Shown one piece after another: positions 43,872-45,551 of a DNA stretch of 64,000 bases (within the stretch, counting starts at the first letter, position 1; the number at the start of each line of letters is the position of its first letter). The stretch covers positions 1-64,000 of IMG/VR virus record IMGVR_UViG_3300009095_000015. One strand, 5' to 3'. Origin of the DNA: a virus. Taxonomy: Duplodnaviria > Caudoviricetes. A program made the translations under genes and the position numbers. The notes below the pieces were generated by a model. It worked only from the letters and a program-made list of their open reading frames with translations, was not told where the DNA came from and did not search any database.

Positions 43872-45551
43872 TTACTCCTTATCCTTGGTCGCGAGGTCAA
43901 TAGCACGCTGAATTTTGCTGTTCGGTCGCGTATTGGTTTTCTCGTAGACAGGCGCAAACACCGACGGGTCGATGTAGTTCGCAATGGCCGTAGTAGCAGT
44001 TACGGTTTCTCCGCTCATGTGGCCAAGCTCTTTACCGATTTTCAGACAGCGTTGTTCGATCCACTTGTTCACGTCAGCGTCTTTTGCATTTTTTCCGAAC
44101 GGCGGATTAGCCAGCAGCTTGAGTGCCATTGCAGTACCGCGCAGCTTACGAAACATGTGAATGGTGAAACCTTCGGGGAAGCCAAGCGAACGCAGATACT
44201 CGTTAACGTGACTGTTGCTTAGCACTTTTCCTCTGAAAGTAAACACGTGCTCAACCGGGCGCTTGTCTTCAGCGAAGTCCAGAATGGCCTCTCCGAGTAG
44301 TTGCGTCCGCAGTTCAGGTCCGAACTTGATGACGTGCTTTTGTGCGCCCCCTTTCTTGCCAACGTATTTGAAAATAACACGTTGTTCGTTCAGGTTCAGA
44401 TGCTTGCGCAACAGCGTGCTAATGCCGTACGTGGTTTCACCGTTGGTCTTGCCGCGCGTGGAGCCTATTCGAGCAGCCGTCTGGTAGACAATCTCACATA
44501 CGCAGGCGGCAGTGCCACGAAGAGTGCCGCGACCACGCTTCAGATCGGCAACCCATTTTTCAACGTAGGTTTCCAAGTCAGGGAGCATGCTTTGAACAAT
44601 GCTGAATTTCTCAACCCGACCACCCGTGCGGAAATCAACCGTGGTAACGGTTGTAAAATTCTGTGCGAAAGGTGCTTTGTACTGACACACGTAGCCGTTA
44701 TCGGTTTCCGGGTCGTACTTAGGATTCATACGGCCCTCACCGACAGGCTTCGACATAAGCTGCCGGCCGGCAACCGTGTAATAATTGCCCTTGTCGTCAA
44801 TGCGGCCGACAAACCACGCTGGCATGTCGTGCTGTACGGAACCCATTTTCGCACGTACTTCGGAAACATCCATGTGGGGCTGGCCACTACTACGCACAAT
44901 GTTTGCGATGACTTTATCGTAAATAGCTTTACGCTCGCGGCGCATGTCCAAATAGGCTTGATGTTGCGGAAGGTTACTGCCGATTTTCTTGGCCTCTTCT
45001 CGCCATTTTTGCAGCACTTCTTCCGGCATCACTACGCCTTGCACTTTGCCATATTGCAGAACGTGCTGCTGAAGACGTTCGTACAAACTACGTTGATGCG
45101 TGTCAACAACGTGATCGTCATCGTGAAGAAACATTTTGCTAATATGACTGTCGCGCAACATGCTTGCGTTGGCCATAATTCGCTTGGCTGCCGACTCCGA
45201 ACCGTTGTAGGCGAGCCGCAAATCGTTCATCATCGAAAGCTGCTGCTTGGTAATGCCAAGGTCGCGCTCGATATTCTTTTTCTTCTCTTTGAAGTTGTCA
45301 AAAAGGGCTTTCACGTAGGTGCTGTGTGGCAGCTCGCTCACGTCTTGCCCCGAAAGCAGCAGATCGAGGGGCTTTTTAGACACACGCACCATCTTGAATT
45401 GCTCGAAGAAGGGTTGCGCTTCAACGGCCCACTTCTTCGCTTTGTTTAGGAAGTTCGGGCCGTAGTTGAAGTCGGCGGCCCGGTATAACGCAACAAGCAG
45501 GCGCAGTACAGAATCCACCGAATCTTTGTTCGCAGATAGGGACACGATCAT
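43872..45551 (-). CDS. DNA topoisomerase IB
   Basis: Catalytic set in order: AARIG (R), TYGISTL..KH, F.YVGKKG (K), HMFRK.RGT (R), LGH (H), ANYIDP (Y). Confidence 0.85.
   Translation of the reverse strand: MIVSLSANKDSVDSVLRLLVALYRAADFNYGPNFLNKAKKWAVEAQPFFEQFKMVRVSKKPLDLLLSGQDVSELPHSTYVKALFDNFKEKKKNIERDLGITKQQLSMMNDLRLAYNGSESAAKRIMANASMLRDSHISKMFLHDDDHVVDTHQRSLYERLQQHVLQYGKVQGVVMPEEVLQKWREEAKKIGSNLPQHQAYLDMRRERKAIYDKVIANIVRSSGQPHMDVSEVRAKMGSVQHDMPAWFVGRIDDKGNYYTVAGRQLMSKPVGEGRMNPKYDPETDNGYVCQYKAPFAQNFTTVTTVDFRTGGRVEKFSIVQSMLPDLETYVEKWVADLKRGRGTLRGTAACVCEIVYQTAARIGSTRGKTNGETTYGISTLLRKHLNLNEQRVIFKYVGKKGGAQKHVIKFGPELRTQLLGEAILDFAEDKRPVEHVFTFRGKVLSNSHVNEYLRSLGFPEGFTIHMFRKLRGTAMALKLLANPPFGKNAKDADVNKWIEQRCLKIGKELGHMSGETVTATTAIANYIDPSVFAPVYEKTNTRPNSKIQRAIDLATKDKE

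Follow-up and report, generated by a model that had tools for sequence, protein, structure and literature searches.

A predicted type IB topoisomerase of a Lu11-like jumbo phage, with a family-specific helical domain and a leader peptide shared with neighbouring genes

Introduction

Topoisomerases of type I are annotated in several jumbo phages, including Lu11 ('putative topoisomerase I', Lu11_0197), HRDY3 ('DNA topoisomerase type I', XDJ15083), PaBG ('DNA topoisomerase I', gp84) and phiRSL1 ('topoisomerase IB', ORF108), and a phage-specific topoisomerase I of these phages has already been described (Iyer et al. 2021, PMC7824862). Here we analyse a related gene at positions 43872 to 45551 of a 64,000-nucleotide stretch of viral DNA (IMG/VR record IMGVR_UViG_3300009095_000015; hereafter the window), which encodes a predicted type IB topoisomerase (TopIB). 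The protein is 63% identical to the Lu11 and HRDY3 proteins, 41% identical to PaBG gp84 and 27-32% identical to proteins of NCTB, Xanthomonas phages, Motura, BCSR5, phiRSL1 and Rhizobium phages. It also matches phrog_23460 over residues 6-557 of 559 (E 1.3e-222). An earlier reading of the window from its sequence alone had treated a TopIB as unusual in a tailed phage, a rarity that was overstated in view of the Lu11, HRDY3, PaBG, phiRSL1, Motura and Rhizobium phage annotations and the 2021 description. TopIB in tailed phages is not new, and the gene is a further member of a known jumbo-phage family.

The source assembly is a single 74-kb contig that, judged from its sequence, is a new Lu11-like jumbo phage and a new species-level sequence. 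Megablast of positions 43000-47000 against 50,697 phage records gave no match, and the locus therefore has only protein-level relatives in that phage collection. IMG/VR yielded 45 further TopIB loci, nearly all from contigs 190-320 kb long. A 315-residue database fragment (P0022) corresponds to the first 315 residues of the TopIB with one substitution, Q69R; a very close relative of the phage has therefore been sampled elsewhere.

Results

The TopIB gene and the domains of its product are laid out as follows.

43872-45551, minus strand: TopIB gene, 559 amino acids, ATG start, stop codon at 43872-43874 (open reading frame (ORF) list, Pfam PF01028, phrog_23460, AlphaFold2 model)
45528-45551, minus strand: N-terminal leader MIVSLSAN, residues 1-8, disordered in both AlphaFold2 models, motif kept in orthologues
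44847-45527, minus strand: family-specific all-helical N-domain, residues 9-235, isoelectric point 9.5
44640-44846, minus strand: small beta N-terminal domain of TopIB, residues 236-304, recognised from the strands of the model and by alignment with variola TopIB and human Top1
43875-44639, minus strand: catalytic domain, residues 305-559, with R361, K399, R468, H511 and Y526
45560-45563, minus strand: GGAG Shine-Dalgarno sequence in the upstream sequence, 8 nucleotides ahead of the TopIB ATG

That the gene is a genuine TopIB of the known phage family is close to certain, and sequence and model together indicate that it very probably encodes an active enzyme of the jumbo-phage-specific family phrog_23460. 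The Topoisom_I family of Pfam (PF01028) matched at E 1.1e-14, with 54.9 bits against a gathering cut-off of 23.7, which upholds the earlier assignment to TopIB; NCBIfam gave no match for the TopIB or for the SprT-like and MmcB-like proteins encoded upstream of it. When the PDB was searched with the single protein, only TopIB enzymes were returned (Deinococcus, 2e-5; archaeal, 2.4e-4; and, weakly, variola and vaccinia). A family profile built from 28 sequences, reaching down to 28% overall identity, found only these four at E <= 1e-3 (archaeal, 3e-16; Deinococcus, 9e-15; variola, 7e-6; and vaccinia, 8e-5). By fold, ranks 1-22 of the Foldseek search were all TopIB structures and tyrosine recombinases started only at E 0.02, so that the best structural matches are TopIB enzymes and not a tyrosine recombinase or protelomerase.

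The five catalytic motifs that the sequence-only reading had picked out are all present and in order: R361 (AARIG), K399 (VGKKG), R468 (HMFRK), H511 (LGH) and Y526 (NYIDP). These residues align with their counterparts in Deinococcus, archaeal and variola TopIB, and the TYGISTL..KH stretch aligns with the poxvirus and bacterial TopIB motif, as had been claimed. R361, K399, R468 and Y526 are invariant in the family alignment, and H511 is found in at least 90% of the sequences; selection for catalysis is therefore indicated. As inferred from the family, the enzyme would clamp duplex DNA and Tyr526 would attack one strand to give a 3'-phosphotyrosyl link, while R361, K399, R468 and H511 would stabilise the transition state. 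The cut strand would then swivel and be resealed, and both positive and negative supercoils would be relaxed with no need for ATP or Mg.

An AlphaFold2 model built on the family alignment (mean predicted local distance difference test score 87, predicted template modelling score 0.72) shows how the domains are arranged. Variola TopIB residues 5-314 align structurally to residues 242-558 of the phage model. The small beta domain aligns with variola TopIB from residue 5 and with core subdomain I of human Top1, and the two-domain clamp that it makes with the catalytic domain fits TopIB structures better than tyrosine recombinases. Because residues 236-304 are thus the canonical small beta N-terminal domain, the N-terminal extension noted earlier does exist, but its length beyond a TopIB of poxvirus size is about 235 amino acids and not about 300. 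The proposed start at MIVSLSA is well placed: besides the Shine-Dalgarno sequence, the ATG shares bases with the stop codon of the deoxythymidine monophosphate (dTMP) kinase gene upstream (ATGA), and the N-terminus is kept in orthologues.

Most of the extension consists of the helical N-domain, for which neither Pfam nor the PDB gave a match. A profile of this domain detected 315 proteins at E <= 1e-3 among 1.84 billion cluster representatives (clusters at 50% identity), nearly all of them 540-580 amino acids long with the domain at the N-terminus. The domain model also matches the N-terminal parts of PaBG TopI (template modelling score 0.83) and Motura TopI. PF02919 (Topoisom_I_N) did not match at E <= 1 with the whole protein or at E <= 0.1 with the N-domain, and no Top1 chain was among the top matches of a PDB-wide fold search. 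The nearest ESM Atlas clusters carry PF02919, but at 0.81-0.83, a range reached by shuffled sequences. On sequence and model, this basic helical domain appears to be the hallmark of one large phage TopIB family; an extra DNA contact is our guess as to its role.

The short leader in front of the N-domain recurs on other genes. A strict leader core, defined as M-x(1-4)-[ILV]-[ASN]-[ILVF]-[AS], is matched by 7 of the 83 predicted N-termini on the contig where 0.59 would be expected (about 12-fold), all of them within a single block, 27994-45551. Its carriers include an ART-PolyVal ADP-ribosyltransferase (PF18760, E 4e-30), four large paralogs and small proteins.

27994-42515, minus strand: leader-bearing genes downstream of TopIB, with starts at 28359, 31647, 33461, 36188, 38377, 40962 and 41722 (ART-PolyVal) and an internal in-frame start at 42515

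Between copies the leader codons vary synonymously, so that it is the peptide on which selection acts. TopIB orthologues keep x-[ST]-[LI]-S-A near the N-terminus down to 30% identity. In Lu11, MKIQLAVA-type starts are found on Lu11_0196 to 0208, TopI included, and about 12 of 22 consecutive HRDY3 genes, TopI and a GNAT gene among them, have MEMMLALAA-type starts. Distant relatives carry an S-rich leader (MKINISISA, MRILISLSS) on NUDIX, GNAT and other genes. At one locus with a TopIB 31% identical to ours (L046:1600-19444), 11 of the 29 ORFs around TopIB fit the leader pattern, mostly in the MKINISISA form, and the tag system is therefore much wider than the Lu11 group. The sequence-only reading had taken the leader as a hint of virion packaging. 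The leader itself proves to be real, recurrent and common to unrelated neighbouring proteins, and the packaging idea is therefore better supported than could have been known from the one sequence, while packaging as such continues to be an interpretation.

Two further observations concern the distribution of leader-like starts. In PaBG-like phages the SprT-like protein itself begins in this way, with MELAIAS, MDLALAA or MLVSISAA (L002:2107-3453, which is PaBG gp89; L020:6112-7458; L026:3881-5521); the SprT-like protein of the window and that of Lu11 have no leader-like start. The ORF at 42264-43055 (minus strand, 263 amino acids) has a HEYAH zincin motif and a weak match to anthrax lethal-factor-like peptidases (E 0.036), and its internal in-frame start at 42515 opens with the leader MKTTISLAAS. 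This ORF could be two modules in one frame with a leader between them.

The consensus of the leader, [IL]-A-[LV]-A-[AGS], resembles A-x-A sites that occur in the capsid and scaffold-like proteins.

24286-25374, minus strand: capsid protein, ATAS at residues 71-74
26198-27943, minus strand: scaffold-like protein, 581 amino acids, 13 A-x-A-S sites

With 13 A-x-A-[SA] sites, the scaffold-like protein has 22 per 1000 amino acids compared with 1.3 overall. For the capsid protein of PaBG, a cut after AVA at residues 76-78 (AVA/A, 76-79) leaves 79.4% of the mass by computation, in agreement with the reported loss of about 20% (PMC7412058). Sequence patterns of this kind make A-x-A a putative candidate for the specificity of the prohead protease. 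TopIB leaders of relatives contain A-x-A.

TopIB is the last gene of a four-gene overlapping string that is led by a SprT-like peptidase.

46653-47993, minus strand: SprT-like zinc metallopeptidase (HEMIH), first gene of the string; Pfam PF10263, 33.8 bits against a cut-off of 25.6; GTGA junction
46177-46656, minus strand: MmcB-like PD-(D/E)xK nuclease; Pfam PF06319, E 4e-12; TAATG junction
45548-46177, minus strand: thymidylate kinase (Tmk); Pfam PF02223, E 1e-41; ATGA overlap with the TopIB start

The string sits in a long series of co-directional genes that extends from the terminase and portal genes as far as the head genes, and HRDY3 has terminase and portal, then the operon, then large paralogs along one string. 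From the gene context, the TopIB would be expressed together with a DNA-protein-crosslink-type protease, a repair-type nuclease and a dTMP kinase. The order SprT-MmcB-Tmk-TopIB is kept in Lu11, HRDY3 and PaBG, and all three partner genes were detected upstream of TopIB in 17 of the 45 related loci. Another 10, more distant loci have a major capsid gene 4-10 kb downstream from TopIB. In PaBG, TopI is followed by gp83, gp82, gp81 and the capsid protein gp80, of which gp83, gp81 and gp80 have been identified in virions. No SprT-like domain was found in phiRSL1 or in a 238-kb IMG/VR genome, both complete and TopIB-bearing, and the SprT-like gene of Motura is 25 kb from TopIB on the other strand. 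Co-occurrence of SprT and TopIB is thus not obligatory outside the clade. Sigma-70-like and terminator-like sites in 40500-54000 were not above shuffles, and the core shared with the annotated middle/late promoter of Lu11 was not enriched.

Some members of the TopIB family are fused, in metagenomic gene calls, to Tad6, Acb1, DUF5661 or a SprT-like segment (P0055, P0121, P0128, P0062 and P0177). Tad6 is fused to TopIB in P0055 (E 3e-35) and Acb1 in P0128 (29.7 bits). Tad6 is an anti-Thoeris protein and Acb1 an anti-CBASS protein. A related-locus search with P0055 recovered only an unfused relative (L053), and the same search with P0128 found nothing. At the fusion junctions, the leader is present in some long forms (P0010, P0058, P0078) and absent from others. 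Phages and conjugative elements have polyvalent proteins, reportedly described by Iyer and colleagues in 2017. Modules of the ART-PolyVal, SprT-like, GNAT and NUDIX type known from such proteins surround TopIB as separate genes. Modules such as those fused to TopIB are found in series in delivered polyvalent proteins, and we have counted the fusions in favour of packaging.

Three other genes of the window were noted. A DUF1353 protein (E 6.5e-28; 41725-42249, minus strand) adjoins the ADP-ribosyltransferase gene, and a tail-fibre-type protein with an endosialidase-chaperone (Peptidase_S74) domain is encoded just upstream of the operon (48442-49305, minus strand). The 1431-amino-acid ORF at 55427-59722 (minus strand) has an intein splicing domain (E 3.5e-22) and a LAGLIDADG homing-endonuclease domain; comparison with the HRDY3 gene order makes it a probable large terminase interrupted by an intein.

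Discussion

The gene call itself is ordinary, and the interest of the locus lies in the family: its N-domain, its shared leader and its anti-defence fusions. By analogy, the leader may be a capsid-targeting and prohead-protease tag, in which case the TopIB would be loaded into the head with other tagged enzymes and would enter the next host with the DNA. We regard this as quite possible and put it somewhat short of an even chance. The internal proteins and Alt of phage T4 carry a capsid-targeting sequence, and the likeness is that of a short N-terminal peptide, found on unrelated proteins near head genes, that ends in a motif like a maturation-protease site; the two sequences are unrelated, and the likeness to T4 is a functional analogy. 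A fuller scenario has the TopIB loaded into the prohead with ADP-ribosyltransferases and other effectors and ejected with the genome, the helical N-domain adapting the enzyme to this role and the SprT-like protease guarding against trapped complexes. Taken as a whole, this is possible but rather doubtful.

Several observations weigh against carriage in the virion. PaBG gp84 is absent from the 14 virion proteins identified by mass spectrometry (MS), a set confined to Coomassie-visible bands. Tmk and MmcB, the operon partners, are typical cytoplasmic enzymes without a leader, and the phiRSL1 TopIB lies among genes of nicotinamide adenine dinucleotide (NAD) and polyamine metabolism and has no clear leader. 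The TopIB leader of the window reads S-L-S-A-N, without an exact A-x-A, and the TopIB fusions are known from metagenomic gene calls alone. As regards the enzyme, the literature searched yields no biochemical characterisation of any phage TopIB of this family.

PMC7247149, citing Yamada 2010, places 'a DNA topoisomerase' in the phiRSL1 virion. The statement is ambiguous and not assignable to ORF108, since type IIA enzymes are annotated in phiRSL1 as well. In the literature searched there was no confirmed virion detection of a TopIB of this family and no deep proteome of a Lu11-like phage. Among the PaBG virion proteins only gp202 (…NSLSAA…) and gp83 are leader-like, and gp191, gp261 and gp263 (function not known) do not start with a leader; this set is too small for a correlation between leader and virion to be tested. 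The S-rich leader core is found within the start, MGSLFTLNSLSAAI, of PaBG gp202 (L050:8541-14450), a 221-kDa virion protein identified by MS.

Different identities for the protein have little in their favour. A tyrosine recombinase, integrase or telomere resolvase in place of a topoisomerase is very improbable, since the top matches by sequence, profile and fold are all TopIB and recombinases rank below every TopIB structure. The protein also has a TopIB-type beta N-domain, a lysine (K399) in the beta2-beta3 turn and the motifs of TopIB, and it has neither a recombinase-type N-terminal core-binding domain nor a Phage_integrase match at E <= 1. That the protein is a TopIB derivative without catalytic activity, with a DNA-binding or structural role, can be set aside with much the same assurance: the size of the added N-domain might hint at a new function but nothing specific points to it, and the full pentad is invariant or nearly so in 28 sequences down to 28% identity.

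The site of action is far less settled. A purely intracellular swivelase, easing the torsion of replication, transcription or packaging of a genome of about 300 kb, has close to an even chance of being the right explanation; the leader would then be a protease or unfoldase tag or a signal for stability or translation. Translational coupling of TopIB to the dTMP kinase, behind a repair-type nuclease, fits such a role, as do the type II topoisomerases and full replication set that these phages also carry, the PaBG virion MS without gp84 and the metabolic surroundings of the phiRSL1 gene. It accounts less well for a leader that resembles a putative maturation-protease site and is also found on the ART-PolyVal and other effector-type proteins beside head genes, and fusions to anti-defence modules fit delivered effectors better than replication factors. 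A further proposal would suit either location of the TopIB. SPRTN and Wss1 remove trapped eukaryotic Top1 from DNA, and the SprT-like protease might similarly remove TopIB trapped covalently on phage DNA, with the MmcB-like nuclease tidying the lesion. The overlapping stop and start codons from SprT to TopIB, the order kept in Lu11, HRDY3 and PaBG, the partners in 17 of 45 loci and a SprT-like segment fused ahead of TopIB in P0177 (23 bits) are consistent with this pairing. However, the P0177 match is below the Pfam cut-off, two complete TopIB-bearing genomes have no SprT-like domain, the Motura copy is far away on the other strand, and the synteny may be mere inheritance within one clade. Moreover, host proteins have been taken to be the targets of these peptidases (Iyer et al. 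2021, PMC7824862), and we consider the pairing unlikely.

Carriage in the head, if the tag does load it, would mean that these phages deliver a DNA-relaxing enzyme together with the genome. This would make it the first known case of a phage that injects a topoisomerase, and a functional parallel to the TopIB of poxvirus virions; convergence with the poxvirus strategy is speculation. In that case the tag would also offer a simple way to load foreign proteins into the capsids of jumbo phages. Independently of the tag, a helical domain of 235 amino acids without a known fold is restricted to this family, where it occurs in 315 clusters at 50% identity.

The TopIB of poxviruses is a virion enzyme. 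The structures available for vaccinia and variola (PDB 1a41, 2h7f, 3igc) belong to proteins with about 15% identity to the phage protein, which differs from them in its extra 235-residue helical N-domain and leader; the phage enzyme is a candidate for carriage in the virion. CCCTT/TCCTT frequency in the phage genome is unremarkable (z about -1). Among solved structures the best sequence matches are the TopIB of Deinococcus radiodurans (2f4q/3m4a) and an archaeal TopIB (6z01), at 22-23% identity in structural alignment. Bacterial TopIB has Asn where the phage protein has His511, and neither the bacterial nor the archaeal enzymes have the helical N-domain of the phage family. The members of the jumbo-phage TopIB family share the length of the protein described here and its order of leader, helical N-domain, beta domain and catalytic domain, and those of the Lu11/PaBG clade also share its SprT-like, MmcB-like and Tmk neighbours. 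Even within this clade there are differences, as Tmk abuts TopIB in the window whereas in Lu11, HRDY3 and PaBG the two genes are separated by one or two small ORFs that bear a leader, and the leader here is an S-rich SLSA variant, unlike the A-x-A form of the Lu11/HRDY3-type relatives.

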